From a virus: a stretch of DNA of 58,914 nt. Made by a program: the position numbers and the translations under genes. Under the pieces are notes generated by a model. The model saw nothing but the letters and a program-made list of their open reading frames with translations. It was not told the origin of the DNA and did not search any database. Positions 6,001-58,914 of the stretch are shown here, piece by piece. The stretch covers positions 1 through 58,914 of the IMG/VR virus record IMGVR_UViG_3300023283_000071, one strand, 5' to 3'. How positions within the stretch are numbered: the stretch's first letter is position 1; each line of letters opens with the position of its first letter.

Positions 6001-9000
6001 ATGAGATGAAGTCGTTGCCGGTCAGTCCGATCGACTACATCATCGACAAGATCGAGCAGGCGGGCCACACCATCGGGGAAATCACTGGACGCGAAAAGCG
6101 GGTTCGTATGGAACGCTACGAGGACCAGGACGGTAAAACGGTAGAGCGTCCGGTCCTCGACCGCCGGCCCGATTCAATTTCCTTGCGCATCGAGACGATC
6201 CTCAGATACAACCAAGGAGGGGAGAACGGTCTCGATGCGTTGATCATCAACCGGGCCGGATCTACAGGGATCTCCCTGCATGCTTCGGAGAGTGTGGGGG
6301 ACCAGCGCCAGCGCACCATGATCATCGCGCAGCCCGAGGATAACATCGACACGCACATGCAGGTCTTGGGGCGCATCAACCGCACCGGACAGGTGGTGAA
6401 GCCCCGCTATCTGCAACTGGTCGCTGACATTCCCGCCGAGAAGCGGCCTGCCGCTGTGCTCTCGAAGAAGATGGCGAGCCTGAACGCCAACACGACGGCG
6501 GCCCGATCTAGCTCGCTGACGGCTACCGATGTTCCGGACTTCATCAACGAGTATGGAGACGAGGTGGTCGGGCAAATCCTCGACGACGATATGGAGCTGT
6601 TTTACAGGCTCGACGTCAACGCCAAGCTGAGAGAAGGGACGATCGCTCGAGAGGATCTGGCACGCAAGACGACCGGCAGGATCCCGCTACTTCCGATCGA
6701 GGATCAGGAGGCCCTATACGACAGGATTGAGAGCGATTACAAGGAACTGATCGCGCAGCTCGACGCCACCGGCGCGAACACCCTGGAGGCGAAGTACCTA
6801 CCCCTCGACGCCGAGGAACTGAACCGCAAGCAACTCAAGGAACCGCTGTCCAATGTTGATTCTCCGTTCGCTGAGGGGGCGGATGCGGTCCGGTACCGCA
6901 TCAACGTGCTCGGCAGACCCTATCCGACGTCGAAGGTGCTTAGAGATCTGTCCGAGCGCCTCGGACGAGGCTACAGCGAATCGGAGAGTCCCGAGGAAGC
7001 CGCGACCGCGCTACGGCAGCTAGGTCGCGAGGGACGTCGAAAGATCCTTCAGGACGCGAAGGTCGAGTTCGAGTCCTACAAGCGGGAGGTGGTGGACCAG
7101 ATAAAGGACGAAGGGAAGGCGCGGAAAGAGGAAGCGAAGCTGGATCAGCAGTGGGAAAGGTTTGCTGCCACGATCAAGCACATCTTCCCTGGCAACCAGG
7201 TGCAGCTTGATGCGCACTCGGGGCGCACGTTGGGCACGATCATGGATGTCGTGCCGACCGGCGAGACGAAGAATCCGATCGCCGGCGGCGGTTGGAAGGT
7301 AACGATCTATCTGGTCTCGAGCGCGCGCCAGATCACGCTACCGCTATCTCGTCTCAAGCTGTTCGGCACCGTGGCCGGGCAGAGCATGCAGGAGAAGATA
7401 CAGGGTATCGGCGCGACCTCGTTTATTGTGGGAACGGCTCCGGAACTGCAGACCCCGATCATCCTCCGCTACGACGAGATGCAGGAGCAGCGCCGGGAGG
7501 AGCGATGGATCGTCACTGGGAACCTGCTCGCCGGATTCGACGCCGCCGGCGCCAAGGGTCAGATCATCACCTTCGAGACCCGAGAGGGGACTGTGGTATC
7601 GGGCATCATGATGCCCAAGGAATGGGACGTGGACGCGGCAATCGGGGGACAGCCGGTGCGGTTCTCGGAGGCGTCTCAGGTGGTCGCCTACGTGGCCCGG
7701 GTACGAAAGTATCCCGCGTTCGCCGCCGACAACATCGTCAGGATCATGGACGACAAGGGCCAGGGGATCCGAATCCTGGTCGAGCCTTCCCGCAGCACCG
7801 GCGGGAAATACTACATGAACGAGGGGGTGCTCGAGGCGCTCGGAGAGGACTTTGTTTCTTCCGGCTCCAGCATGGTCGCCCGGGTTTCCTACGACGGTGC
7901 CCAGAACGTCGTCCAGGCACTCATGGACGCCGGCGCGGAGTTTGAGGCCCGCACCGAGAAGGACATCGCCCGCCAGATCGCGGGCTTGCCGCCGGTCCAG
8001 GAGGCGAGACGAAGCGCGCCGGCGGCGGCCACGGGGCGTTCGACCACCGTCCGCCAGGCTCGGGAGGCGATCGCTGACCAGGTGGGCGAGAAGGCGCTGC
8101 GCCACCTCGAGCAGCTCGGCGTGATCACGCTCGTCCAGTCTCGCGGCGAGCTCCCCGAGCACCTCCAGAAGGACGCCGGCGCCGGCGTGTACGACTTCGA
8201 GAACCACCGCGCCTACCTGGTGGCCGACGAGATGGGCAAGGAGGACGCCTACGGGCTGTTCCTGCACGAGGTGGGGGTCCACTACGGTCTCGAGGGGTTG
8301 CTCGGCGAAGATCTGTTCGACCGGGTGCTACGGCAGCTTCGCGGCCTCGAGGCGTCGGGGAACAACGCGGCTCGGAGGGCCCGCGAGCAGGCCAGGAAGA
8401 AGCGGTCGGACGCCAGCGAGGACGAGGAGACCCTCGCCTACGTGGTCCAGGACCCGGCGAACCACAAGCTCTCGCTGGTACGCCGGGTGGTGTCCGGGAT
8501 CCGGGCCTTCCTGTTCCGCATCGGCGTGGTGAAGCGGCTGTCCATCGACGACATCGTGATGTTGGTGCGCGCTGCTGCGCGCCGGCCTCGGCCCCAGACC
8601 GAACGCCGTGCCCGGAAGGGTGCACGTGCCCATTCGGTGAGGATGCCTACCGACGAGCAGGAGCGTCGGTACCAGGAGGCCAAGAAGGGTCTCGGAGATC
8701 AGCGAAGCCTTGTTCAAAGGGTCCGGGACCACATAACGCACACGTGGCATGGGATCAGCCGGCACTTCATTGAGCTTCCAAACACGCCGTTCTTCGCTCC
8801 CGCGTTCGAGATTCTGAGAGAGTTCGAGGCTGCCCCGGAGGCGGCTAAAGAAGAAGCCGTGCGCAGGTTGCAGAGGGTTGTGGGAAAGTTCAACGACAAG
8901 GATCTCGACCTGTTCACCAGAAAGGTTCTTCTCGACGATCTCCAATGGGAGATTGACAACGAGCACGAGTTGCCCTTCGCCTTGAGCCCTGAAGACCACG

Positions 9001-11729
9001 CCGCCGCCAAAGCCGACGTTGATGCAGCGGTGGCCGATAACCCGGACGTCCAGGAAGCAGTGCGCACGCGCTCCCGATTCCTGGCCGATCTGCGAGACAG
9101 GCTGGTTGAGGCTGGGGTGTTGTCTGAGGAACGGGCAAACAACCCGCACTACTTCCGGCACCAAGTTCTGCTCTACGCGAGATTGAATCAACGCGGCCAG
9201 AGCGCACGGAAGGTGAAGAAGCCGAGACCAGGCTACGCGATGAAGCGCGAGGGATCTCTACACGACATCAACGCACACTACATCGAAGCCGAATTTGACT
9301 TCATTCATCGCGCCCTGATCGACCTGAAAGCAGTATCAACGATCGCCAAAATTGACGACCGTTACAACATCCAGGGAGATCTCAAGAACAAGGCCCGCAT
9401 GGCGAACACCGCGGCGATGGAGGGCATCATCGCACAGGACATCGAGGAGAACGGGTGGGAGCTTGAAAACGGAAATCGCACCAGCCCGCTCGACCAACAG
9501 TGGAAGGGGTACAAGCAGCGCATTGCCAGGGGGACACAGAGTCTCGGGAAAATGCTGCTGGCCGATGGGGCCCCGGAGGTGCCGTCTCAGTATCAGGCTG
9601 CCGTCGAGGAGTTGATCGACTCGGCGCGGGAGCACCAGGAGCAAGCGGCCGAGGGAGTGCCTCTGGAGGAGCGAACTCAGATCGGCGCGATCAGCGACGA
9701 GGCTCAGGCGCAGTTGTTCCCGCTGTTGAGGTGGCTTCTACAGAACGACGCGACCGGCGCGGCTCCCGCGGGAATGATTCTGAAGGCCGTGAGCGAACGG
9801 CGGGAGTTTCTGAAGGAGAGTCTCGGGAAGAACTACAAGACGTGGAGAAGCCTAGTCCCTGACGGCTACGTCACGTGGCAGCCTGAGAAAGGCAATATCT
9901 TTTACACCGCCAAGACGTTCGGCGAAGACGTGATGAATCGCCTTCTAGGGATGGCCGAGGAATACGCACCTGCCAGTGTGGATAAAAGCGCCATACGGGA
10001 CGTAGTGGGGCGTATGAAGGACGCCGTCGTACTTGGTCAGAAAAAAAAGGAACTGGTCATCCCGGAGGAACTAGCAGCCACTCTCGAACACATGGCGCCA
10101 GATCCGCATGATGGACTGTTTGACCATCTATTCGGTGATCCGTTGAGGTGGTGGAGGCAGTGGGTGCTGATCAACCCGAGGCGGGTCCTCAAGTACAACC
10201 TCAACAACCTGTCCGGAGATCTGGATGCGGTGATCGCGGGGGCGCCCAGCGTTCTAAAGAAATTGCCGAGGGCGATCCGAGAATTGTACGATGTGATGCA
10301 CGATCGCGCAGAGCCCTCCGAGCTTTTTCGAGAGGCCGTGGACCGGGGAGTTTTCGACTCTGGGTTGACGATTCAGGAGATCCCGGACATCAACTATCTG
10401 TCGAAGTTTCGCAACCTGGTCAAAAAATCCACGCTCAGAGAGCCCGGTAGGTTCACTGTCAGTAACATCGCCAGAGTGTGGCATGGCCTTCGTGACTACA
10501 CCCGGTTCCGGGAAAACTGGATGCGCTACGCGGCCTTTCTACATTATGTGGAAAAGCTCGACAGCGGAGTCCCATTGGAAAACATTGGGTTCGGAGGCTC
10601 TAATCCCGACGCCGTAAAGGCGATCTATGAATCGGAAGGACCTCATGCCGTAGCGGGGCTACTCGCCCGCGAGCTCGTGGGGGATTACGGCGCGGTCAGT
10701 CACTACGGACAGGAGATTCGGCAGAAACTTATCCACTTCTACTCGTGGATGGAGATCAACACGAAGCGTTACACCAGGTTCTTCCGTAACGCATGGGAAC
10801 AGGGCTTCGGAAGTACCGCGAGGGTAACGGGAGTGCTAGCGGCTTCGGTCGCAAGAAAAGGGGCGCTCCTAACGGCAGGGCTCTACGTGAGGATGTTTCT
10901 GCTGTTCATGATCCTGAATGCGTGGAATCATCTGATGTTCGGCGACGAGGAAGAAGAACTAAATGACCACGATCGCGTTCGTCTCCACATCATTCTTGGG
11001 CGCAGCGATGACGGCACCATTCGCCTGATCCGCTTTCAGGGCGCGCTGTCCGACTTCCTCGACTGGTTCGGGTGGCAGGAGGCGGTGGCGGTCATGTCCG
11101 CCGTCGAGAAGGGGCGCGGCACCGCAACCGATCTACTCGAGACAGTTGCCCAGGCGCCAATCAATAAGATCTTCATGGGATTGACGCCCGTCATCAAGAC
11201 GCCCTTGGAGTTGATGTCCGGGCTAAGTTTTTTCCCGGACGTCTTCAACCCGAGGCCGATACGCGATCGCGGCCGGCACGTAGCTCGGCTGTTCTCCGCG
11301 GAACATGAATACGACGTGTTCACAGGCAGGCCGTCGAGAGGCTATGCGCAGTCCCTTGAGGAAACCGTCATTGTCCGCAGGGACGCTGGCGAGATCGCCT
11401 ACAACAAGATCAAAGGGCTCGAGTATGACTGGGCGGAAAAACAGCGCGGCACGTCCGGTTTTTCCACTATACAGACCGCACGGAGCCAGGCGACGTACCG
11501 CTGGAAGATCGCGACGAGGTACGGGGACAAGGATGCGGCGAAGCGCGCCATGGCAGATCTTAAGGCCATGGGCGTGACGAAAAAAGACATCAACAGAATC
11601 GTGAAGCGGGGTCGCCCTCTGGGAGTGATCGCCGCCAGGGACCGCGGGCGATTCCTCCAGAGCCTGACTGCGAGGGAGCGTGAAACGCTGGAAGCCGCAA
11701 AGCTTTGGTACAAGGACACGTTCCGCTAA
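18..11729 (+). CDS. Giant polyvalent multi-domain protein with a family-I pyrophosphatase-like module, N6-adenine DNA methyltransferase, SNF2/SF2 helicase, HExxH zincin-like module and a long C-terminal region with hydrophobic helices. This is the 3' part of an ORF that starts at 58349 across the circular junction.
   Basis: Uninterrupted 3903-codon ORF. Motifs read directly: YGYIRGTTGFDKDHLDVFL (nt 1995-2051; compare PPase YGFIPxT..DGDPxDV); EPSAGNGAL plus NPPF (3144-3155), which are amino-MTase motifs I and IV; GDQTGVGKGR Walker A (4728-4757); DETH (5142-5153); QVLGRINRTGQ helicase motif VI (6360-6392); HEVGVH (8265-8282). The frame is open from nt 1, so the Met at 18 is internal. Confidence 0.9.
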   Translation: MSPATRKALDEFAQDIARPAAMVQNQAGVEPPATAPPPEIEESAGYWASTKRGMATAAYGVSEALSLVGDVLGVEAIEERGEAGAQYWKKVLERPELQRPEFMRHGLVEGLKRRPLDYSINLLLENIPLLVTMMSGGGVAGVVAARALPAAVKAGIKAGNPAAISRARKTIGRAAMGGAAPTAGAIEGGFARGEALEAGATDEQALEVALRVGVINAALEVTPIGLLFRNPAGRRLITRIGQQIVAEAGTEAVQEFNNNLQHMLVHQPDKTLEDLFEGTPEAAYAGGLIGALMGAGGAWYNRGAPEEEGGAASVRGATGDGGYYTREIDAGDPDAPTELAGGTSATQEGPDTDRPTDLAGNPEAPPEPSGGPPQGPSGPTGGPPQGVAPGEPPPDFDLQPPGPQPVPGAVGAPQPPPPGPPAAPAAPTESVEPIPAPPTTPEQFQPTHTTPEGTEIMAGEGGYYTREIDAESGERRPVLKFHEGTTVTTREGRQVPIAEMEVTPAEERRRLEAAGQGKLPIPEPRETIDEAEGDAAASPENQRPEPTPAQKEAGNYPKGHVKLHGRDLSIETPRDSHRWQLATERLKMMAEQEHKDDNVSRFIRKALRLLEKNETVPEGFDVLRRMVGLSDKPGDWATEVRDELRGILDRGWIQKMSHTYGYIRGTTGFDKDHLDVFLHPDVESRPDAPVFVVNQQDEAGEFDEHKVMMGFTSEAEARKAYLENYPKGWEGLDSVVQLTPEQFDQWARSDAPKKGKLEGPPETAVPKPGKGEKPPPSPERPFTPTHELPDGTPVRHVEDDVYVDAQGQEWEEPNAAPIETEPDDDREDLAKEEPPEESPEDEGTPTEPDDDREDVASESERLAGEFQHFFAGADNSFKDIREARKWAGERLGRKVAPGTADAKLVDESMEAGLVRAAREIVRSGRKNNRTWDVIFDRLVNLYERQPRLGVRTSTSVSQQAYSTPMPIAWAVSVIADVGENTTVYEPSAGNGALLIGADPGNVHANELNEDRSETLEAQGFGKVTRFDAATENPGKQHDVVLANPPFGVVHNPDGSAKKFPIQTHKGEKRTTQIDHAIAMRSLASMKKGGTAVLILGSVRKTAASEQARSDAYHSAQKRDFFWALYHQYEVVDHFTIAGELYEKQGAGWPIDIVVVKGRKDAPEQTRTLPAKNLPDILRSFAELKERVRGHEAGLYRPESEGVGAGEQSGGPRGSTEAEGRPESQPGAVPGPVARPGGVAGAGTGGGRTGGGGRSSGTAAGPASKGEQPPGVRGGREGRPEPPDVVDRPRGARGEGELEGEAEPGGLEGAEGSKPGAVGGEPAGAGDLGRELESASEEDIDSLIDDALGEAAPEPAEARPEQKKESLKGAASESGKAISSALDAIWESTGGGSPATFKSGPFAFDEQGYQRIKGHLKASLEHTVAAGGHLKDFIQAVFADAARFPREWVENLLRPAVKRFVNEVNKGLILIKGLNDHKKRVQQQDKPTEHQVSYEPGSDGTPGGTLIPKNMRTAVKESLGDVKKRRGPLSEYVMARLGYTREQLDEYFLAEQIDALALAIDNMERGGAFIIGDQTGVGKGRVVAGALRYAMRQGKVPVFVTEKKNLYKDIYRDFVDIGMGDVTLLMTDASEKVFLTDDKSISLRTPDAQSHNANLIRIARGVQGLDQAFENVPADVIVTTYYQMQSEKGALTPRREFLNAIAPNAMFVFDETHNAGGTETVKRDADGAPIMDRARYVRHLAATAWQVFFSSATYAKRHDVMDLYARTDMRYAVSSIEGLGNAIKKGGVPLQQVVALMLAKAGQYLRRERSFDGIEYSTPLVEVNQTAYANFSRTIEAIHEFSKQVEVVTSHIDDELKGQGMHAGADQSTGGAGAESTKFTSIMHNLISQLLLSLKAQPSVDMALEAIANGQKPVITVSNTMGSFLDEYAEAMELNKGDLVALNFTDLLKRYLDKTRTITKREPFGEAERHYLTDEELGPQGVALYNRIADFMASQDEMKSLPVSPIDYIIDKIEQAGHTIGEITGREKRVRMERYEDQDGKTVERPVLDRRPDSISLRIETILRYNQGGENGLDALIINRAGSTGISLHASESVGDQRQRTMIIAQPEDNIDTHMQVLGRINRTGQVVKPRYLQLVADIPAEKRPAAVLSKKMASLNANTTAARSSSLTATDVPDFINEYGDEVVGQILDDDMELFYRLDVNAKLREGTIAREDLARKTTGRIPLLPIEDQEALYDRIESDYKELIAQLDATGANTLEAKYLPLDAEELNRKQLKEPLSNVDSPFAEGADAVRYRINVLGRPYPTSKVLRDLSERLGRGYSESESPEEAATALRQLGREGRRKILQDAKVEFESYKREVVDQIKDEGKARKEEAKLDQQWERFAATIKHIFPGNQVQLDAHSGRTLGTIMDVVPTGETKNPIAGGGWKVTIYLVSSARQITLPLSRLKLFGTVAGQSMQEKIQGIGATSFIVGTAPELQTPIILRYDEMQEQRREERWIVTGNLLAGFDAAGAKGQIITFETREGTVVSGIMMPKEWDVDAAIGGQPVRFSEASQVVAYVARVRKYPAFAADNIVRIMDDKGQGIRILVEPSRSTGGKYYMNEGVLEALGEDFVSSGSSMVARVSYDGAQNVVQALMDAGAEFEARTEKDIARQIAGLPPVQEARRSAPAAATGRSTTVRQAREAIADQVGEKALRHLEQLGVITLVQSRGELPEHLQKDAGAGVYDFENHRAYLVADEMGKEDAYGLFLHEVGVHYGLEGLLGEDLFDRVLRQLRGLEASGNNAARRAREQARKKRSDASEDEETLAYVVQDPANHKLSLVRRVVSGIRAFLFRIGVVKRLSIDDIVMLVRAAARRPRPQTERRARKGARAHSVRMPTDEQERRYQEAKKGLGDQRSLVQRVRDHITHTWHGISRHFIELPNTPFFAPAFEILREFEAAPEAAKEEAVRRLQRVVGKFNDKDLDLFTRKVLLDDLQWEIDNEHELPFALSPEDHAAAKADVDAAVADNPDVQEAVRTRSRFLADLRDRLVEAGVLSEERANNPHYFRHQVLLYARLNQRGQSARKVKKPRPGYAMKREGSLHDINAHYIEAEFDFIHRALIDLKAVSTIAKIDDRYNIQGDLKNKARMANTAAMEGIIAQDIEENGWELENGNRTSPLDQQWKGYKQRIARGTQSLGKMLLADGAPEVPSQYQAAVEELIDSAREHQEQAAEGVPLEERTQIGAISDEAQAQLFPLLRWLLQNDATGAAPAGMILKAVSERREFLKESLGKNYKTWRSLVPDGYVTWQPEKGNIFYTAKTFGEDVMNRLLGMAEEYAPASVDKSAIRDVVGRMKDAVVLGQKKKELVIPEELAATLEHMAPDPHDGLFDHLFGDPLRWWRQWVLINPRRVLKYNLNNLSGDLDAVIAGAPSVLKKLPRAIRELYDVMHDRAEPSELFREAVDRGVFDSGLTIQEIPDINYLSKFRNLVKKSTLREPGRFTVSNIARVWHGLRDYTRFRENWMRYAAFLHYVEKLDSGVPLENIGFGGSNPDAVKAIYESEGPHAVAGLLARELVGDYGAVSHYGQEIRQKLIHFYSWMEINTKRYTRFFRNAWEQGFGSTARVTGVLAASVARKGALLTAGLYVRMFLLFMILNAWNHLMFGDEEEELNDHDRVRLHIILGRSDDGTIRLIRFQGALSDFLDWFGWQEAVAVMSAVEKGRGTATDLLETVAQAPINKIFMGLTPVIKTPLELMSGLSFFPDVFNPRPIRDRGRHVARLFSAEHEYDVFTGRPSRGYAQSLEETVIVRRDAGEIAYNKIKGLEYDWAEKQRGTSGFSTIQTARSQATYRWKIATRYGDKDAAKRAMADLKAMGVTKKDINRIVKRGRPLGVIAARDRGRFLQSLTARERETLEAAKLWYKDTFR

Positions 11730-23008: not shown

Positions 23009-23317
23009 CTATCGACCACGGTGCATCTGGAGGCGGTGGAGCTCTCGTCGTTCGATGTTGCGCACCTCCCGCGAGGGTCCTCCGATGGGCACGCACACGG
23101 TGATGCAGGCCCAGTTCAGCGGACAGCCTCGGAGCCGTTTCGTCGCCATCTCCAACGATGCCAGGGCTCGCGAGATCGCCTGCCTGTGGTGCCCCGTCTC
23201 CCGTGCCGCATCCGCGACGGTGTACCCCTCGACCAGCACGAGGCGCGTCCCCTCGATGGTCTTGTGGGAGCGGAGGTAGCTCCGCTGCAAAGCCTGCTGG
23301 AATTGGAAGGGGGTCAT
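23009..23317 (-). CDS. KorA/TrfB-family HTH repressor (IncP-plasmid type)
   Basis: FQFQQALQRSYLRSHKTIEGTRLVLVEGYTVADAARETGHHRQAISRALASL aligns with RK2 KorA SQFQEAIQGLEVGQQTIEIARGVLVDGKPQATFATSLGLTRGAVSQAVHRV. It is the last gene of the leftward small-gene operon. Confidence 0.65.
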   Translation of the reverse strand: MTPFQFQQALQRSYLRSHKTIEGTRLVLVEGYTVADAARETGHHRQAISRALASLEMATKRLRGCPLNWACITVCVPIGGPSREVRNIERRELHRLQMHRGR

Positions 23318-23321
23318 GAGC

Positions 23322-23873
23322 TCATGCCATCAGCCTCTGCACCTTGACGACCCGGGTGTCGAGCCAGGACATGACCTGCCGCACGGAGAGGGTGAAGGCG
23401 GAGTGATCCATGTGTGCGATCACGTCCCATTTTAAGCTCTGGTGGTACCTCAGCGCGTAGTCGTCGGCGCGGATCCGGCTGCCGGTCATGTAGAGCATGG
23501 AGCGGTGCAGGATGGCGAGCGCGAGATCCGCCGGTCCGGAGCCACCATGGCCCCACGAGAAGCCGGTCGGGGAGTGCCGCTGGAAGCCATCGATCACGGG
23601 CATCCTGAGCGGGGCGGCGTGCCCGTACGTGTCGATGAACGTCACCTCGTGCTCCTTGCGTCCCTCGAATCGCGCGCCGGAGACATACCTCGCATGGTGC
23701 TCGGCGCAGCGGTACCCCCCCACCTGGACCAGCTCGCCCTCGAACACGGCGATTACCTCGTCCAGATCGTGGACGGAGAGCGCGAGAGATGCGGCCTCAT
23801 CCGGGGTATCGGCATCGACGCGCTCAGTGAGCGGCTGATCGTCGGCGGTCAGTCCTACGATGGTGTAGATCAT
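23322..23873 (-). CDS. Hypothetical protein
   Basis: Track ORF trimmed to the ATG at 23873, which overlaps the upstream stop as TAATG. Contains GFSWGHGGSGPADLALAIL. No confident family. Confidence 0.6.
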   Translation of the reverse strand: MIYTIVGLTADDQPLTERVDADTPDEAASLALSVHDLDEVIAVFEGELVQVGGYRCAEHHARYVSGARFEGRKEHEVTFIDTYGHAAPLRMPVIDGFQRHSPTGFSWGHGGSGPADLALAILHRSMLYMTGSRIRADDYALRYHQSLKWDVIAHMDHSAFTLSVRQVMSWLDTRVVKVQRLMA

Positions 23874-24571
23874 TATGGGCTCCCGTGTTTCTGTCCGACG
23901 TCGGATGCTGCCGTATCGCGGTGCGCGCAGTCGATCACCTCGCTGATCCAGTCGTCGATGGAGCGCATCATGGCGACGTGGAGCACACCGAAGAATGACG
24001 GAGAAAACACCACCTCCTCGTACTTGAATGCCGGCTCCTCGTGCCCGGTTGCTTCGATCTGGTCTCGAGTCACGGGCCTGGGCGCTTCCACGACCCATCC
24101 CCCGACCGCTCGCTGTCTCTCCCCCTGGACCTCGCGCACCTCGTAGCGCAGCGTCATGCCGTTTTCGAGCGCGATGCGTTCGCCGTCCAGGGTTGTCATC
24201 TGGAGAAGTCCCTCATCCTCTAAGGCGGCTACCGCCGGCGCGGCATCGAAGTTCGAGAGCGGGGATACGCGCTGCGCTACCTCGTACACGACGTGCTTCC
24301 AGCAGCGCGCGAGCACGCGGGCGGCCACGGGGCGCCAGCGGCGTGCCATCTCGGCGCCGAGCGTGCTGGACAGAGTGACACACCGGCCTGTCTCCTCGGA
24401 CGGCTGGAACGCATGGCAAACGGACCCGCAGTCGGGGCACTCGCCGTAGGGCATCGGCTCGCCCGGGCTCACTCGCTCGTGGATGGTCTCGGGCGGTATC
24501 CCCAGGAGTCGATGCGTTGGATGGACGGCACCGCAGCCCTCGCACCGCATCAGGATGTCAGTCGTGTTCAC
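23873..24571 (-). CDS. Hypothetical protein with an N-terminal zinc ribbon
   Basis: The GTG at 24571 is preceded by GGGAGGA. Contains CEGCG...CPDCG. The upstream part of the track ORF is Arg/Ser-rich noise. Confidence 0.55.
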   Translation of the reverse strand: MNTTDILMRCEGCGAVHPTHRLLGIPPETIHERVSPGEPMPYGECPDCGSVCHAFQPSEETGRCVTLSSTLGAEMARRWRPVAARVLARCWKHVVYEVAQRVSPLSNFDAAPAVAALEDEGLLQMTTLDGERIALENGMTLRYEVREVQGERQRAVGGWVVEAPRPVTRDQIEATGHEEPAFKYEEVVFSPSFFGVLHVAMMRSIDDWISEVIDCAHRDTAASDVGQKHGSP

Positions 24572-24761
24572 GTGGTTCCTCCCAGGGGCCGCGCTCGAGT
24601 TCCTGCCCGTTGAGCAGCATCTCGCGCGTGGCGCCGCAGTTGCACAGCTGGATGTATCGCCCACCTCCGTGGGCGCGTGGGTTCTGGTCCTCACGGCGGG
24701 CGACCGGGCCCCGGAACACATAAGGTCCGTGGCCGTGGTGAGCGACGTGCCGGTGCTTCAT
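24558..24761 (-). CDS. Hypothetical small His-rich protein
   Basis: ATG at 24761 (MKHRHVAHHGHG...). A 10-codon upstream ORF (24790-24758) with a strong GAGGAG is ATGA-coupled to it. Confidence 0.45.
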   Translation of the reverse strand: MKHRHVAHHGHGPYVFRGPVARREDQNPRAHGGGRYIQLCNCGATREMLLNGQELERGPWEEPREHD

Positions 24762-24799
24762 CGCCACAGTTCCAGATCGGGCTGAGTCATGTCGGCTCC

Positions 24800-25027
24800 T
24801 CAGTGGAGGATGGTCAGGCCGCAGCGCCCGCACACGTCGTCGAGTTCGAGCTCCTCGACGAAGACGGGCGACACCCCGTCGTCATCATCCTGGTCGGGCT
24901 CGTCGTAAAACACCGCGCGCTCGCCCTCGTCTGCGAGGCAGTCCTCGCAGACGAGCTCGCCGTCGTGCGCGACGGCTAGCACCGTGTAGCTCGGCAGGCC
25001 CAGTACATCATCCCGTTCGCCATGCAT
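24800..25027 (-). CDS. Hypothetical small acidic CxxC...CxxC protein
   Basis: 75 aa with an acidic run DEPDQDDDDG and CEDC...CGRC. Preceded by conserved leader copy A. Confidence 0.6.
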   Translation of the reverse strand: MHGERDDVLGLPSYTVLAVAHDGELVCEDCLADEGERAVFYDEPDQDDDDGVSPVFVEELELDDVCGRCGLTILH

Positions 25028-25042
25028 GACTTATCCTCCTCT

Positions 25043-25093
25043 CGTTGGTGGTCACGCGGCAGCCCTCCGGATGGAGGGCTGCGACCTGATCAC
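25043..25093 (-). promoter_or_regulatory. Intergenic hairpin-leader cassette, copy A
   Basis: Plus strand reads cgttggtggtcacgcg GCAGCCCTCC ggat GGAGGGCTGC gacctgatcac. The stem is 10 bp (25059-25068 / 25073-25082). The upstream gene's stop (25090-25092) lies inside the GTGATCAGGTC flank. Confidence 0.75.
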
Positions 25094-25608
25094 CGCGTGA
25101 GCCGAGCGATGTCCTGCGGCTCGACGCCCATGTCCAGCATGAGCGCACTGGCTTCCTTGACCGAGAGAGGCCTGGCCTGCTCTATCGGCCGCTCCCGCCA
25201 TACGCCATCACCGCACATGCGGTCGTGCGCGCCGCGCGCGCCGCCGTTGACGTGCTGGTAGTAGTAGTTGTCGTTGCCGACCCGCACGACTCTCCGCGTC
25301 GAGAACTCGCCCTCGTCCTCGGCCAGGATCTCGCCGTCGGCGAGCGCCTGCTCCTGGAGGTCGCCGAGCGTGGGGATGGCGTAGGTATCCCTCTCCTCCT
25401 CGACGATCTCGCCCTCCTCGTCCTCCCGCCACACGCGGACCTCCACGTCCGCGCAGCCGCCGTACACGTCCTCCGTCCCCTCCTGGGCGGCGTCCCAATC
25501 GCCCTCGGCGGCCCACTCCAGGGCGGCGTCCATCGCCGCCTCGATGCTCTCGGCCTCGATCTCGTCCGAGCCGCAGTCGCCATCCAGCTGCATGTAGTAG
25601 GTGCTCAT
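25090..25608 (-). CDS. Hypothetical strongly acidic protein (candidate DNA mimic or anti-restriction protein; speculative)
   Basis: ATG at 25608. By my count about 34 D/E against 4 K/R in the first ~106 residues. Confidence 0.6.
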   Translation of the reverse strand: MSTYYMQLDGDCGSDEIEAESIEAAMDAALEWAAEGDWDAAQEGTEDVYGGCADVEVRVWREDEEGEIVEEERDTYAIPTLGDLQEQALADGEILAEDEGEFSTRRVVRVGNDNYYYQHVNGGARGAHDRMCGDGVWRERPIEQARPLSVKEASALMLDMGVEPQDIARLTR

Positions 25609-25639
25609 GTCGTGTCTCCTCTCTCTCTCGTTGGTGGGG

Positions 25640-26140
25640 TCACAGCAGGCCACGTTCGGCGAACGAGGTGCTGACCCCGGCGCCGATCACGAAGTGATCG
25701 AGCACGCGCACCTCGACGAGGCCGAGCGCGTCCTGGAGCCGCCGGGTGAGGGCCCGATCCGCCTGGCTCGGCTCGGCGACGCCGGAGGGGTGGTTGTGGG
25801 CCAGGATCACCGCCGCCGCGTTGTGGCGGAGCGCGCGCTTCACCACCTCCCGCGGGTGCACCGAGGCGCCGTCGATGGTGCCGCGGAACAGCTCCTCGAA
25901 GCGGATGACCCGGTGCCGGTTGTCGAGGAACAGGCAGGCGAACACCTCGTGCTCGAGCGCCTCCAGGCGGAGGCGCAGGTAGTCTCGGGTCTCGCTCGGG
26001 CTCGAGAGTTGCGGGCGGTCTCGGAGCGCCGCGGCCCGTGACTCGAGGATGTGCAAAGCCTGCGCGATTGCCTCAGCCTCGGCCGGGGTCAGGTTCGTGC
26101 CGGGGGTGTACTCGGCTGCATCTTCTGATCTCGCCTGCAT
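25640..26140 (-). CDS. radC: RadC-like JAB/MPN domain protein
   Basis: [43 protein letters not shown] is the canonical RadC JAMM block. ATG at 26140. Confidence 0.85.
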
Positions 26141-26160
26141 GTCGTGTCTCCTCTCTCTCT

Positions 26161-26214
26161 CGTTGGTGGTCACGCGGCAGCGCCCCCCAGCGGGGGACGC
26201 TGCGACCTGATCAC
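26161..26214 (-). promoter_or_regulatory. Intergenic hairpin-leader cassette, copy C
   Basis: cgttggtggtcacgcg GCAGCGCCCCCC agc GGGGGACGCTGC gacctgatcac. The stem is 12 bp with one mismatch (26177-26188 / 26192-26203). Confidence 0.75.
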
Positions 26215-26936
26215 TAGTCCCCGCAGCCACCGCGCACGCGCCGGCTGCCGGTCTGATACGCTCGCCAGGTGTAGCCGCAGGGCAGGTACACCTCCTCGTG
26301 CTCGGGGTGCTCGACTACGATCCCGCCGAGCCGCCGGTGCGGGCGCATCGAGTGTCGCTCGGTGCCGGTCCCGGCGAGATCGTCGGTCAGCGTGGCGATC
26401 TGGGACTCGGCCGCCGCCGGGCGCTCGCACTCGCGCCCGACCAGCCAGACGTCGCCCTGGCGCAGGATCATGGCGTCGAGGCGCCCGCGCGCGCCCCGCA
26501 CCTCGCGCGGGGTGATCTCCTCCAGCGCCTGGGGCACCGTGCGGGCTGCCGCGCTCACGCGCTCGACCCACGGCTGCCCGTCGTCGGTGCCGCAGATGTA
26601 TGAGATGGTCGCCGGCCACGAGCCGACCTGCGGCGAATAGTACCTGTGCCCTTCGGCGCGGAGCAGGCAGCACCCGCCTGGTCCGCGGCCGGCCACCTGG
26701 AGGCGCTGCTCGCCGTGGCGCTCCTGGATGGCGGCGGGGAATCCCGCCGCCTCGATCACCGGCTCCCAGCGCGCGACAATGCGCGCGTCGAGCCGCTCGC
26801 GGAGGCTGGGCGGGCTGCGGAGGGTCGCTCGGCGGTTGCGCTCGCGCCTCACGCGGCGGGCGCGGCGGATCGGCTGCCCGTACTTACGGGCGAGCCGCGC
26901 AGAGTCGTCCGGCCAACGATAGATTGCGTTCGTCAT
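26214..26936 (-). CDS. Hypothetical protein
   Basis: ATG at 26936 ([11 protein letters not shown]...), preceded by cassette-type leader D. No family recognised. Confidence 0.6.
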
Positions 26937-26950
26937 GATGCTGCTCCTCG

Positions 26951-27004
26951 TGGTGGTGGGTGGTACGCGGCAGCCCGCCCGAGGACGGGCTGCGACCTGA
27001 TCAC
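26951..27004 (-). promoter_or_regulatory. Intergenic hairpin-leader cassette, copy D
   Basis: tggtggtgggtggtacgcg GCAGCCCG cccgagga CGGGCTGC gacctgatcac. Stem 26970-26977 / 26986-26993. The stop at 27001-27003 lies inside the flank. Confidence 0.7.
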
Positions 27005-27522
27005 TCGGCGGCGTGCTGCTCCACCGCGCGCGCCGCGCGAATCTTCCCGGCACGGCCGCCGCGCGCGAACATCCAGTCGCACCAGTCCGCGAGTGTGGCC
27101 CCCTGCTGGGCCCGGTACTCGGTCGGGTGGGGATGCGCGGCGACAGCGTCGCGAGCGGACGCGAGCCGCTCCTGAGCCGCAGCGATCCGCGCGTCATCGC
27201 GAGCGTGGCGCTGCTCGCGCTGTATGCGCCGCCGCTCGCGGTCGAGCGTATTGTCGCCGAGGTCCTTCGCGGCAGCGGACGCCCGGCGGATGCAGTCGCA
27301 GCCCACCTCGAACTCGTTGCCGTTCGAGGCGCGGACCGCCCAAATCTCGGCGATCCCCTGTCCGCAGTAGTGGCAGGAGCCCATCGGCTGCCCGGGGCTG
27401 CCGATGGTCACGGTCACGCCGCCCCGCTCGTACACGATGGGGCCGCGGCGCTCCGTGACGCCGATGATACGGTAGGGCGGCGGGCCGAGGCCCGCCCGGG
27501 CGAATGGGTGGTCGGATGTCAT
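27001..27522 (-). CDS. Hypothetical protein with CxxC...CxC
   Basis: ATG at 27522 (MTSDHPFARAG...). Contains SCHYCGQG...GCDC. Confidence 0.6.
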   Translation of the reverse strand: MTSDHPFARAGLGPPPYRIIGVTERRGPIVYERGGVTVTIGSPGQPMGSCHYCGQGIAEIWAVRASNGNEFEVGCDCIRRASAAAKDLGDNTLDRERRRIQREQRHARDDARIAAAQERLASARDAVAAHPHPTEYRAQQGATLADWCDWMFARGGRAGKIRAARAVEQHAAE

Positions 27523-27540
27523 CTCCTCTCCTCGTCGGTG

Positions 27541-27590
27541 GTGGGTGGTCACGCGGCAGCCCGCCCGGAGGCGGGCTGCGACCTGACTCC
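27541..27590 (-). promoter_or_regulatory. Intergenic hairpin-leader cassette, copy E
   Basis: gtgggtggtcacgcg GCAGCCCGCC cgga GGCGGGCTGC gacctgactcc. Perfect 10-bp stem (27556-27565 / 27570-27579). Confidence 0.75.
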
Positions 27591-27672
27591 CTCAGTCGAA
27601 GCCCTCGTCCTCGTCGTCCGGCCGGAGGCGCTCGACTGCGGCCCGCGCCCCGCGCCGGGCCCTCCTGATATA

Positions 27673-27756
27673 TCAGCAGTAGGGAATCGCCACCATCACG
27701 CCGGCGAGCGCCAGCGTGAGGGCGACGAGAGCGCGGGCGAGGCCGAGCGAGATCAT
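27673..27756 (-). CDS. 27-aa hydrophobic micro-protein, possibly 54 aa if the in-frame TGA is read through to 27592
   Basis: Not in the ORF track because it is under 60 aa. ATG at 27756 shares one nt with the upstream TGA. Sequence MISLGLARALVALTLALAGVMVAIPYC, then TGA, then 26 more sense codons (YIRRARRGARAAVERLRPDDEDEGFD) with 24/26 G/C at the third position, ending at TGA 27594-27592 just before cassette E. Confidence 0.45.
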   Translation of the reverse strand: MISLGLARALVALTLALAGVMVAIPYC

Positions 27757-27983
27757 CACTCGCCCTCGACGGCCTCCGCTCGGTCGGCGCGGAGCACGCC
27801 GTCCGCGTCGAGGAAGAGGTCGGCGACGAGGTCGCCGTGCTCGAGGTCACCGACCTCGAGCCAGTCGAGCGCCTCGAGCTCGTCCCAAGGCTCCTCGGAG
27901 CCGAGCGGGACGGGCCCCGGCGTCACGCGGTCGGGGGAGTATCCGTAGTTGTCGGCCGTGGGGCCGCGGTAGAAAATAGCCAT
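27756..27983 (-). CDS. Hypothetical small acidic protein
   Basis: 75-aa ORF preceded by cassette F leader (AAGGAGAACACAATG). Confidence 0.6.
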   Translation of the reverse strand: MAIFYRGPTADNYGYSPDRVTPGPVPLGSEEPWDELEALDWLEVGDLEHGDLVADLFLDADGVLRADRAEAVEGE

Positions 27984-28000
27984 TGTGTTCTCCTTCGTTG

Positions 28001-28080
28001 GTGGTGGGTGGTCACGCGGCAGCCCGCCCGGAGGCGGGCTGCCTCAGTGGAGGGCGCGCTACCTCGGGCGCGCCCTCCAC
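28001..28080 (-). promoter_or_regulatory. Intergenic hairpin-leader cassette, copy F, plus a second 13-bp hairpin spanning the upstream stop codon
   Basis: GCAGCCCGCC cgga GGCGGGCTGC (28019-28042), identical to copy E. It is followed by GTGGAGGGCGCGC tacctcgg GCGCGCCCTCCAC (28047-28080), which covers the TAG at 28059-28061. Confidence 0.7.
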
Positions 28081-28250
28081 TCCTCGGGGTGCGACCCGTC
28101 CGGGTCGCACTCACGACCGTCCGGGAGCCGGTACGTCCGGCTCCCGGTCTCGGCGAAGGTCAGCTCGCCCGGCGCGCGGGCGAGCCGAATCTCCACCACG
28201 ACGCCGTGCTCGGCGTCGTGGTACTCGTAGCAAGAATATTCTGTGGCCAT
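28059..28250 (-). CDS. Hypothetical small protein, first gene of the leftward early operon
   Basis: ATG at 28250 (MATEYSCYEYHD...). In-frame alternative ATGs at 28268 and 28289 were created by the 21-bp duplication. Confidence 0.55.
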   Translation of the reverse strand: MATEYSCYEYHDAEHGVVVEIRLARAPGELTFAETGSRTYRLPDGRECDPDGSHPEEWRARPR

Positions 28251-28289
28251 GTGGTCTCCTCGCTTCATGAGGTGGTCTCCTCGCTTCAT
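28251..28289 (-). repeat. 21-bp tandem duplication carrying a Shine-Dalgarno sequence plus ATG
   Basis: Minus strand reads ATGAAGCGAGGAGACCAC twice (28289-28272 and 28268-28251) with a 21-nt period. Confidence 0.85.
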
Positions 28290-28441
28290 CGTCAGGGGCT
28301 CGCGGTGCGAGCCGGAGTGAGAGACAACGAGCGCCCCGCGCTCGACGAGGGGGGATACTGCTTTCCAGACAGTGACTTGCGGCTGCTGCCGTTCCATCGG
28401 TTCGCCTCAGCGGTGGGCGTTCCAGGTGTCTCTGGGGAGAG

Positions 28442-28470
28442 AGTATAGACGGCCGAAAGGCAACGGTCAA
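28442..28470 (-). promoter_or_regulatory. Sigma70-like promoter for the leftward small-gene operon
   Basis: Minus strand reads TTGACC (28470-28465), a 17-nt spacer, then TATACT (28447-28442). The -35 element lies inside a 12-bp tandem repeat. Confidence 0.5.
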
Positions 28471-28480
28471 GGCAACGGTC
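28457..28480. repeat. 12-bp direct tandem repeat (x2) overlapping the -35 element; candidate operator
   Basis: AAGGCAACGGTC AAGGCAACGGTC, an exact repeat. Confidence 0.8.
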
Positions 28481-29100
28481 GTGTGCGTCATACCGCGCGG
28501 ATAGTGGCGGGAGATGCGCGAGATCAGTACCATACGGGTCGTTCGCTCGGCCGGGCCGCGCTCCCGGCCTGGGCCTCCGGCTCCCCGCCGGCAGGTCCTC
28601 GCCGGCCCCTCGCTCGTCGTCGCCAGCGGCTGGCGCGTAGGTGGTGCGCGCCAGGACGACGATGGCGCGCCCGGCCGGGCGGACGTCTGTGTGCACCCAG
28701 CGGCCGACTGGCTCCGCGGAGGCCGCGGAGGCCGCTGGTTCGCAGAATCGTCATTATGTCAAATCCTCGCCCGCCCCGAATCTCTCGGTGCCGCGGGCTG
28801 TTACGCTCATCTGCTCACGTACTGTCTCACGTCATCACGGTGCGCGTGTCGCATCCAGGACAGGATCGTCCCGGCACGCCGCCGCTCAAGCCGCATATCT
28901 CTGCGCGAGCTCGACCACGAGCAGCTCGCCGAGCGCCGGCCGGAGGTGCGGGCCGGAGGTGAGGGCGCCGTGGGGGGAGGGGCGGCCTGGCCGGGGCCGA
29001 GGGGAAGGTGTCGGGCGCGCGCGGAGGGGGGGGGGTGGGGGAGCCCGCGCGGGTCCCATCGCGCGTCTACTATCATATGATTCCTGCCTCACTCGCAGCC

Positions 29101-44848: not shown

Positions 44849-44871
44849 GCGGGAGGGCTGATCCCTCCCGC
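44849..44871 (+). terminator. GC hairpin downstream of the capsid gene (attenuator/terminator-like, no T-tract)
   Basis: GCGGGAGGG ctgat CCCTCCCGC, a perfect 9-bp stem. Confidence 0.5.
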
Positions 44872-45320: not shown

Positions 45321-45344
45321 GGCGGGGGCCGCGAGGCCCCCGCC
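45321..45344 (+). terminator. GC hairpin with a GNRA loop (terminator-like, no T-tract)
   Basis: GGCGGGGGCC gcga GGCCCCCGCC, a perfect 10-bp stem. Confidence 0.55.
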
Positions 45345-58348: not shown

Positions 58349-58914
58349 ATGAGACTGCCTGACGGTACCGAGATTCCGGATCCGCCACCGGGTTTCACCC
58401 GGATCATCACCGAGCACGAGCGCGACGAGGACATCGCCCCACCCCCACCGCCAGGCTTCCGTGCGATCGGAGGAGCGGGACTCGAGGAGCCGCAGACGGC
58501 CTACGAGCCGCCAGGGATTCTCGAGCGTGTCCTGCCCGCCGCCCCAGACTATCCAGAGCGTATCCCCCCGGGCGAACAGCGCGCGCCGAGCGAGCAGTTC
58601 GCGGATAGAGTCGGGTCTGGGCCGGATCGAGTCGGGACTGAGTCGGATAGAGTCGGGGTCGAAGCAGGGTCACCGGAGATGTCTCCGGCTACCCGCAAGG
58701 CGCTCGACGAGTTCGCCCAGGACATCGCGCGCCCGGCCGCCATGGTCCAGAACCAGGCCGGGGTAGAGCCGCCCGCCACTGCACCGCTCGCGGATAGAGT
58801 CGGGTCTGGGCCGGATCGAGTCGGGACTGAGTCGGATAGAGTCGGGGTCGAAGCAGGGTCACCGGAGATGTCTCCGGCTACCCGCAAGGCGCTCGACGAG
58901 TTCGCCCAGGACAT
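58349..58914 (+). CDS. 5' part of the giant polyvalent ORF; it runs off the window end and continues at nt 1
   Basis: Absent from the track because it has no stop in the window. The ATG at 58349 lies 1 nt after the upstream TGA. MRLPDGTEIPDPPPGF.... It is in the same frame as the ATG at 58679, which equals nt 18. Via the 64-nt end overlap the frame joins nt 3 onward without a stop. Confidence 0.75.
   Translation, partial: MRLPDGTEIPDPPPGFTRIITEHERDEDIAPPPPPGFRAIGGAGLEEPQTAYEPPGILERVLPAAPDYPERIPPGEQRAPSEQFADRVGSGPDRVGTESDRVGVEAGSPEMSPATRKALDEFAQDIARPAAMVQNQAGVEPPATAPLADRVGSGPDRVGTESDRVGVEAGSPEMSPATRKALDEFAQD
58599..58914 (+). repeat. In-frame 189-bp tandem repeat (63 aa) with a nested 21-nt DRVGxxx sub-repeat
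   Basis: 58599-58787 equals 58788-58914 continued by nt 65-126. The junctions unique->R, R->R and R->unique are all present in the window. Confidence 0.85.

Follow-up and report, generated by a model that had tools for sequence, protein, structure and literature searches.

Why do successive gene junctions of a single phage operon carry the same hairpin and the same leader? The question is raised by the uncultured virus genome IMG/VR IMGVR_UViG_3300023283_000071, of which all 58,914 nt were analysed (hereafter the window). Between 24.8 and 28.1 kb, successive junctions of its leftward early operon are occupied by a spacer module of ~65 nt, in which a GC-rich hairpin is followed by a translation leader, in five full copies and one 3' half-copy. 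This repeated hairpin-leader module between early genes is confirmed as real, and all its copies lie in one orientation between a stop codon and the next start. We give about an even chance to the reading that it is a lineage-specific intercistronic punctuation cassette in a polycistronic early mRNA.

The original prediction, made on this same DNA, had described the module at five junctions and had found it nowhere else in the window. On the minus strand the pattern GCAGC-N-GCTGCCGCGT gave five matches, against 0.01 expected, and none of 100 shuffles reached five; GCTGCCGCGTGACCACC occurs exactly four times. A covariance model was built from the five full copies and run on the window and on 17 loci from related contigs. 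It scored the copies (lettered as in Table 1) at 81.2 (A), 79 (E), 71.5 (D), 69.3 (C) and 60.2 (F) bits, and the half-copy B at 10.5 bits (E = 2.4). No further significant copy was found in the window or in the 17 loci, so the module is indeed confined to this array, and no homologous module was found that could add sequences to a test of covariation. The full copies and the half-copy all lie on the minus strand in the early operon, none of them in the structural region, and have a GC content of 68–80%.

Aligned, the copies show one order of parts: the upstream stop codon with TGATCAGGTC; GCAGC, apical stem, loop, apical stem and GCTGC; CGCGTGACCACC; an optional CACCACC; (A)ACGAG(AG)nGGAG; 4–9 nt; and ATG. 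The distance from stop to stem is 7–15 nt and from stem to ATG 31–36 nt, with intergenic lengths of 62–75 nt; the ATGs behind the copies (Table 1) follow from open reading frame, third-position GC (GC3) and translation calls. The original prediction had placed the stop codon of the upstream gene in every copy, which does not hold for the 27.57 kb copy (E): the TGA abutting it closes no open reading frame of at least 20 aa, the last real gene upstream ending at 27673. Nor does the 28.03 kb copy (F) have the common 5' flank ascribed to it; GTGATCAGGTC is absent there and the nominal reading frame stops at a TAG 15 nt before the stem, in the loop of another hairpin. The leader of module D lacks one G (CGCGT-ACC). 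The half-copy at the sixth junction was correctly described: it has no hairpin, its 32-nt run ending in ATG is identical to the module C leader at 26.14 kb, and the radC stop is the TGA of GTGACC.

The 5' flank, which includes the stop codon, reads G(G)UGAUC at 25087-25093, 26208-26213 and 26998-27003 (minus), and E and F have GAGGGAG/GAGG in its place. We take this flank to be complementary to the 3' end of 16S ribosomal RNA (GAUCACC), that is, Shine-Dalgarno (SD)-like. Restriction-site avoidance, or a special role of TGATCA or GATC in the flank, was discarded as an explanation, both being unremarkable in the window (26 and 607 occurrences, respectively).

Table 1. Copies of the module, further features of the operon, and analogous cassettes on other contigs (window coordinates unless a contig is named).
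Feature	Coordinates	Strand	Content
GCAGC-N-GCTGCCGCGT matches	25054-25082, 26172-26203, 26965-26993, 27551-27579, 28014-28042	minus	
Module F	27984..28058	minus	hairpin 28018-28043; leader CGCGTGACCACCCACCACCAACGAAGGAG; ATG of 75-aa gene at 27983
Module E	27523..27593	minus	orphan TGA; GGGAGTCAGGTC; hairpin 27556-27579; long leader; ATG of 173-aa gene at 27522
Module D	26937..27003	minus	stop TGA within GTGATCAGGTC; hairpin 26970-26993 (one U.G); ATG of 240-aa gene at 26936
Module C	26141..26216	minus	TAG stop, then TGATCAGGTC; 12-bp hairpin 26177-26203; short leader; RadC-like ATG at 26140
Half-module B	25609..25642	minus	RadC stop is TGA of GTGACC; leader only; ATG of 172-aa acidic protein gene at 25608
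Module A	25028..25092	minus	stop TGA within GGTGATCAGGTC; hairpin 25059-25082; short leader; ATG of 75-aa gene at 25027
Sigma-70-like promoter TTGACC-17-TATACT	28442..28470	minus	10/12 match; heads leftward operon
Array of six different perfect GC-rich hairpins	28018..28222	minus	9-14 bp stems; last is the module F hairpin
Module-preceded genes	24800..27983	minus	75 aa; 173 aa Cys-rich; 240 aa; RadC-like JAB 166 aa; 172 aa acidic; 75 aa CxxC
Distal operon	23009..24790	minus	tight/overlapping junctions, no module; small open reading frames, Zn-ribbon-like protein, DUF6166, KorA-like helix-turn-helix protein
Cassettes of L178 (ENA contig ERZ27256834)	8787-8866, 9428-9497, 11760-11830		
Cassette of L179 (ENA contig ERZ27256827)	6127-6296		
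Cassettes of L184	1428-1574, 2455-2552		hairpin + U-tract terminator; AT-rich promoter-like box (TTTTATATATTAGTTGTATGA); CA-rich leader
Cassettes of L185	1421-1515, 2087-2186		variable hairpin + GTCGcTTTTtGTTCAAG
L186 and L181 gene starts			TAnnCT (-10-like) box; GGTGGTCAC; GAAAGGAGCC

The hairpins of the five copies have stems of 10–12 bp (−21 to −27 kcal/mol, palindromes of 24–27 nt), and all five stems are fully paired with zero mismatches despite four distinct apical sequences, with loops of 3–4 nt (AUCC, GCU, CUCG or UCCG). The stem base GCAGC/GCUGC is invariant, as had been claimed, but it contains an A-U pair and the hairpin is thus not made of G and C only; N14 to N17 separate GCAGC from GCUGC. 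The stems of E and F are identical (GCAGCCCGCC-UCCG-GGCGGGCUGC). Relative to them, copy A (apical stem CCUCC/GGAGG) has U-A for G-C at pair 8 and a different loop, copy D has U.G for C-G at pair 9, and in copy C both partners of two pairs are changed, and there are one U.G, two extra pairs and a 3-nt loop. The apical stem quoted earlier for the 26.19 kb copy (C) was that of the other strand, and on the coding strand it reads GUCCCCC/GGGGGGC with the U.G wobble. The two wobbles, in C and D, are the only non-Watson-Crick pairs; being U.G on the transcribed strand and C.A on the opposite strand, they lean weakly, as two events, to structure in the sense transcript. The tail CGCGTGACCACC has one T in the 12 nt after each stem, which confirms that there is no U-tract. 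It is the 10–12 bp hairpin that is maintained, the flanks being conserved as sequence. That structure is conserved over sequence, as first proposed, holds qualitatively for the core hairpin, although this is not demonstrable statistically with five copies.

Two functions suggested by the stem were rejected. Mimicry of the anti-SD sequence by an apical CCUCC would apply to A, E and F by their sequence, with the motif shifted in D and absent in C. For mimicry of a CRISPR repeat (an RNA anti-CRISPR), no array-like locus with multiple hits was found in any collection scan.

The other half of the module is the leader from stem to ATG, which is about 30 nt long, C/A-rich and G-poor (CGCGUGACCACC, the optional CACCACC, and AACGAGAGGAG). 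The region of the modules is the most GC-rich in the genome (70–73%), yet the start regions are predicted to be open: the unpaired probability at −25 to +12 was 0.63 for the six module genes versus 0.42 for 36 other genes (Mann-Whitney p = 4e-4). A role of the hairpin as a structural insulator of the translation start was considered and abandoned, as the effects of disrupting it in silico were mixed. Strong hairpins without a U-tract also occur on the plus strand at 44849-44871 and 45321-45344, where they immediately follow the major capsid gene and its downstream neighbour; they lie 25–30 nt before the following start and have no conserved flanks. The order of stop, U-less hairpin, SD and ATG is thus a device that the phage uses elsewhere.

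The copies fall into two subfamilies clustered by neighborhood, A, B and C with the short leader and D, E and F with the CACCACC insert. Leaders B and C share an identical run of 32 nt, and about 43 nt are the same in E and F. Scars are seen at gene boundaries, namely the half-copy at radC, the orphan stop at 27.59 kb and the module-like 3' end of gene 24800-25027. Together, subfamilies and scars point to spread by local duplication or by recombination or gene conversion. A 1427-nt contig from another sequencing run (Logan SRR23862446) is 100% identical to 26140-27566 and breaks exactly at the module repeats; it adds no variation, and shows that the phage was present in that run and that the modules fragment short-read assemblies.

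Several features adjoin these scars. Upstream of module E, a 28-codon hydrophobic reading frame at 27673-27759 (minus; MMISLGLARALVALTLALAGVMVAIPYC) overlaps the stop of the 75-aa gene. The following ~80 nt (27591-27672, minus) have a coding-like phase bias and no start codon and end at the orphan TGA, and they look like the remnant of a deleted gene. At the far end of the array, the last 30 nt of gene 24800-25027 (24800-24830, minus; GGGCGCTGCGGCCTGACCATCCTCCACTGA) resemble the 3' arm and flank of the module (GGGCGCTGCCGCGTGACCACC...); this may be a seventh copy, a degenerate half-module that has become part of the coding sequence.

The promoter that heads the operon (Table 1) was the sole promoter-like site found by the promoter scan on the minus strand between 22.5 and 30.9 kb, and the scan found no sigma-70-like promoter in any module. 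The other leftward operon has a similar promoter at its head, at 18115-18087. Across the genome, U-tract terminators are about as frequent as expected by chance, and the terminator scan found none at the modules. The 456 nt downstream of the promoter are strongly folded (z = −8.96) and include, within 205 nt, the array of six perfect hairpins (6 versus 0.03 expected; −17 to −31 kcal/mol each). This array overlaps a nominal 63-codon reading frame (28250-28059; GC3 0.89, coding-like) whose stop lies in the loop of the fifth hairpin and for whose 63-aa product no homologue was found. Across 24800-28260 lie 11 of the genome's 15 perfect hairpins of at least 9 bp, against 0.36 expected from shuffles, and three of these 11 lie inside coding sequence (24926-24955, 13 bp; 26730-26751; 27839-27861); the richness in palindromes is thus not limited to the junction modules.

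Five of the six module-preceded genes have no Pfam or PHROG family, and the genes of 24800-27983 have a GC3 of 0.85–0.93. After the first 75-aa gene, a gene for a 28-aa hydrophobic peptide follows with an overlapping start and no module. A structured leader region was noted at the start of the operon (28250-28436, minus). At 28251-28292 (minus), right before the ATG at 28250, ATGAAGCGAGGAGACCAC is directly duplicated in frame with its copies CTC apart, and its end, GAGGAGACCAC-ATG, resembles the SD part of the module leaders (GAGAGGAGACACGAC-ATG). Between the divergent operons, about 750 nt (28250-29007) are very GC-rich and apparently non-coding and could be a regulatory or origin region; a long C-tract (cccccaccccccccctcc) lies near 29025-29042 (minus).

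The window is a closed phage-like genome of 64% GC, in which positions 1-126 are repeated at 58662-58787, giving a unit length of 58,661 bp. The last 127 nt of the contig repeat 58599-58725 (offset 189; region 58599-58914), and the terminal redundancy looks like a k-mer overlap artefact of circular assembly. The rightward half has genes for both terminase subunits (small and large), an SU10-like portal, the major capsid protein, the tail and a GH108 endolysin. No deposited phage has a large terminase more than about 40% identical to this one, and the nearest are phages of proteobacteria. No tRNAs were found in the window, and Rfam gave no match in it at gathering score, with sub-threshold noise alone at 24.7–28.5 kb. 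A 3903-aa reading frame (18-11729, plus) matches InPase, DNA methyltransferase and Strawberry-notch-type helicase domains and PHROGs of DarB-like antirestriction proteins; its product is a polyvalent anti-restriction (DarB-like) protein and not a virion RNA polymerase like that of N4. No PDB chain was matched by its C-terminal 1654 aa, and aa 1-640, 1100-1540 and 2260-3903 are unannotated save for one endolysin-like stretch. The other 38 proteins scanned included no RNA polymerase, the 39 proteins scanned no recognised antiterminator homologue, and the proteins scanned around the array no recombinase or integrase. The phage does encode SbcC/SbcD-like and VRR-NUC proteins and helix-turn-helix (HTH) regulators (KorA-like and XRE-like).

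Relatives of the module were sought in several collections. Among viral contigs (IMG/VR), an exact 17-mer pattern gave 14 single chance matches, a 15-base pattern was too permissive and gave singletons only among the matches listed, and a 5'-flank pattern gave none. JGI metagenome contigs gave 24 single matches to the exact pattern, all coding or unrelated (for example in a recurrent methyltransferase-like gene), and GTDB genomes, searched with the exact pattern CAGGTCGCAGC-N10-20-GCTGCCGCGT only, gave 10 single chance matches in coding DNA of unrelated taxa. Loci seeded with the helicase were distant (35–49% identity), mostly low in GC and without comparable hairpins; a DUF6166-seeded search found no relative. 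Exact look-ups of the RadC and 75-aa products found no record. For the 240-aa protein, weak Streptomyces plasmid matches were seen and a single homologue, of 43% identity, whose 1.6-kb contig bears a different long hairpin; no plasmid match was found for the 173-aa protein. Two operon proteins have homologues at 38–59% identity in other uncultured phage contigs, which do not have this module. The original prediction had held that relatives with the same genes and no module would count against it, and for these two genes this is in part what was found.

Such contigs bear junction cassettes of their own. On L178 and L179 (58% GC), contigs of an unrelated phage with a homologue of the 173-aa gene, four copies of a cassette of unrelated sequence were found, each with TAG-GTTCTGCG, a variable but paired hairpin, a conserved second hairpin (TGGAGCA-N-GCTCCA) and AGGAGGACGGAC-ATG. 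The start-associated AGGAGGACGG has 13 copies on one strand of L179, at gene starts, and none on the other. Cassettes or start boxes of other kinds were seen on L184, L185, L186 and L181 (Table 1), and L183 has no hairpin. The architecture recurs in arrays of small early genes, but its sequence and its combination of terminator, promoter and leader differ from lineage to lineage; the module is not tied to particular genes. The GGTGGTCAC leader of L186 and L181 is the exact reverse complement of GTGACCACC, which follows the hairpins of the window phage (25047, 26165, 27544, 28007), and these phages all carry the 173-aa protein family; judged by the letters, this match could be coincidence or a shared protein-binding site.

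How might such a module work? In the punctuation reading, host RNA polymerase would transcribe the array from the single sigma-70-like promoter at 28.45 kb, and a very stable hairpin would form in the transcript just past each stop codon. As neither a U-tract nor a promoter follows it, the hairpin would most likely not terminate transcription efficiently, and would instead form or protect 3' ends, as a barrier to 3'-to-5' decay and/or as a weak attenuator; each upstream cistron would be stabilised, and output would be graded along the operon. Precedents for decay barriers are the Rhodobacter puf intercistronic 'mRNA decay terminator' and the E. coli REP hairpins, and where hairpins block 3' exonucleases, upstream operon segments outlast downstream ones. 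The leader would be a separate functional half, which would keep SD and AUG unpaired in a context of 72% GC and give each gene a standard strong start. The ~65-nt unit would have been copied from junction to junction by duplication or recombination. It would thereby offer homology for the gain, loss and swap of small early genes, that is, for cassette exchange as shown for the promoter-early stem-loops (PeSLs) of T4-type phages.

A number of results weigh against this reading, every functional step of which we infer. Covariation between the stem arms, counted on a MAFFT alignment that is limited by the five copies and by mis-registration of copy C, scored 0.095 versus 0.043 for shuffled alignments, a score reached by 20 of 500 shuffles, and is not significant at n = 5. 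The strand asymmetry of wobble-containing hairpins over the whole region is likewise not significant (5 minus versus 4 plus), and a DNA-level or compositional cause may lie behind the regional richness in palindromes. Shuffling either arm in silico, or deleting the hairpin, gave no consistent drop in the openness of the start region; openness is thus a feature of the leader, the hairpin must have some other purpose, and there may be no functional link between the two halves. The capsid genes have a high GC3 as well, and that of the cassette genes is therefore no proof of a foreign origin. Finally, a megablast of 24–29 kb against 50,697 phage records gave no match, and hence no close relative.

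Among the roles first suggested for the module, processing or stability, termination or attenuation, and cassette boundaries are compatible with these data; N4-type promoters are not. The strongest competitor, which we regard as possible though doubtful, is that the hairpins are true terminators or attenuators, either U-less ones that the host RNA polymerase tolerates or factor-dependent ones, which would be read through only with a phage antiterminator and so time or grade the early genes at the level of transcription. The analogous cassettes of L184 and L185 bear canonical terminators of hairpin and U-tract, and the structured leader of ~115 nt and the six-hairpin array after the promoter could belong to an antitermination system. 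As read from its sequence, the C-rich, G-poor leader resembles a short Rho-loading segment. Each stem of the module, however, is followed by 12 nt with a single T, and U-less hairpins terminate poorly in vitro in the bacteria tested. No promoter stands behind any hairpin, and a series of five efficient terminators would shut down the distal genes, that for the KorA-like regulator among them; no antiterminator homologue was recognised among the 39 proteins scanned. On the other side, the stem-loops of PeSLs have been shown experimentally to terminate (PMC2839356).

Could the hairpins be cut rather than read through? We think it unlikely that they are processing sites of the RNase III type (or of another endonuclease), at which pairing of the GGUGAUCAGGUC/CGCGUGACCACC flanks would extend the stem to a helix of ~20 bp and cleavage would yield monocistronic mRNAs with hairpin-protected ends. 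The RNase III sites of T7 early mRNA, to which the module had been likened, form irregular helices that contain an internal loop and reach about 20 bp or more, and they too lie at successive junctions between cistrons of an early transcript made by host polymerase. RNAfold predicts helices of 19–20 bp with three 1x1 mismatches in A and C and of 15–16 bp in E and F, so that an extension to 15–20 bp is predicted in four of the five copies. The likeness is weak, however: the extension is lost in D through a 1-nt deletion and takes a different register in F, and the pairs by which the conserved flanks would form the outer helix show no covariation and are broken in several cells. The core stem alone, at 10–12 bp, is about half the length that RNase III needs. 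No Rfam family was matched either.

An element acting mainly at the DNA level is just as improbable in our judgment. RNA structure would then be incidental, and the repeats would serve as recombination homology, as cruciforms for the SbcCD-like or VRR-NUC nucleases, or as operators for the KorA- or XRE-like proteins, all of which the phage encodes. The mosaic, neighbor-clustered copies and the scars at gene boundaries are consistent with this, as are the roughly 30-fold enrichment of 24.8–28.3 kb in perfect palindromes, some within genes, and the demonstrated recombination of PeSLs (PMC2839356). Operators, however, would conserve sequence and spacing, whereas the apical sequence and length vary (N14 to N17) with pairing kept. 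Read as mRNA, both imperfect stems have a U.G pair, which on the opposite strand is C.A; the strict sense orientation and fixed distance to the ATG point to expression, and no recombinase was found nearby.

Less probable still is that the invariant parts, the GCAGC/GCUGC base and the CGCGUGACCACC flank, form the site of a dedicated phage RNA-binding or RNA-processing protein, possibly an orphan of the array such as the Cys-rich 173-aa protein, homologues of which co-occur with analogous junction cassettes in other phages. At the same low probability, the cassette genes would then form one post-transcriptional regulon, open to joint processing or shut-off, like those of T4 RegA/RegB or of a Cas6-style endonuclease without CRISPR, and, with as little likelihood, the same unit would be the exchange point for anti-defence gene cassettes. 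The least credible proposal, that the hairpins are single-stranded DNA promoters of the N4 type or plasmid Frpo-like promoters for a virion-delivered RNA polymerase, can point only to a superficial likeness: there are hairpins in front of early genes, and there is a giant reading frame. It is rejected because that frame is DarB-like and the other proteins scanned include no RNA polymerase, because the operon has a canonical sigma-70-like promoter at its head, and because stems of 10–12 bp with loops of 3–4 nt and differing sequence do not fit N4 hairpin promoters, which have 5–7 bp stems and a 3-nt loop of conserved sequence at a fixed distance from +1.

We return to the punctuation cassette and compare it with known systems. 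A canonical intrinsic terminator shares the GC-rich hairpin and differs in its U-tract. Integron attC sites (57–141 bp, with R''/L''-L'/R' boxes) differ from the 24–27 nt palindrome here, which has no GTTRRRY core and no recombinase found around the array. The puf decay terminator and the E. coli REP/BIME elements (in malEFG and others) are, like the module, U-less GC-rich hairpins between cistrons, and they are read through and block 3' exonucleases. REPs, however, are host-genome-wide families with a dedicated transposase, and for the module the exact pattern gave no multi-copy genomic match in GTDB; the puf hairpins belong to a single locus and are not a repeated cassette fused to a standard leader.

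Closer are the SAS/ESAS of Cluster K mycobacteriophages, a conserved asymmetric sequence with an AGGAG core upstream of starts (Pope et al., 2011, PMC3203893). The SAS has a 13-bp consensus, GGGATAGGAGCCC, 3–7 bp before start codons, and before about half of its copies there is an inverted repeat whose spacer varies; the elements lie in one orientation at non-structural genes, often include the upstream stop, are absent from the host and other phages, and are of unknown function (PMC3203893). The module resembles them in its single orientation, its limitation to non-structural genes and its absence from the public collections scanned. Its leader (...ACCACC(CACCACC)AACGAGAGGAG...) differs in sequence and, with about 30 nt, is the longer; it is also rich in C and A. 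In the ESAS the arms form imperfect repeats of 17 bp, and where these depart from perfect repeats RNA pairing is not supported; the authors favour protein binding (PMC3203893). The arms here, by contrast, are fully paired with both-side or wobble changes.

The PeSLs are mobile regulatory cassettes of T4-type phages (Arbiol et al., 2010, PMC2839356; Comeau et al., 2014, PMC4122927). Like them, the module joins a G/C-rich stem-loop to an SD sequence, is concentrated between small orphan early genes, and spans the distance from upstream stop to downstream ATG, here at six consecutive junctions. Its copies are similar over 40–60 nt, enough for recombination homology, and the scars fit cassette turnover; with no close relative found, recombination at the modules is read from these internal scars. 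The module has no sigma-70 promoter and no AT-rich upstream element and so fails on the defining promoter of PeSLs. The phage is also unrelated to T4 (about 58.7 kb, 64% GC, an SU10-like portal and a DarB-like giant protein), and the sequence family is unrelated.

If the punctuation reading is right, the module is a clean natural 'gene adaptor' without a promoter, made up of stops in two frames, an RNA hairpin and an open ribosome-binding leader, by which the phage plugs small early genes, probably for host takeover or anti-defence, into one operon. The finding opens no long-standing question and is unlikely to strongly surprise specialists in phage genomics. Together with the analogous cassettes of several other uncultured phages that share homologous early genes, the module suggests that modular junctions of the PeSL type occur widely beyond the T4 group, with terminator, promoter and leader components combined differently in each lineage. 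This would help in the annotation of early regions in phages and could supply insulator parts for use in high-GC hosts. With PeSLs and SAS/ESAS the module shares its placement, its orientation and its restriction to non-structural orphan genes and, as is likely, its evolutionary role. Other phages are already known to have repeated intergenic regulatory cassettes, and the module is a variant of these that is specific to this phage; it represents no new kind of system.

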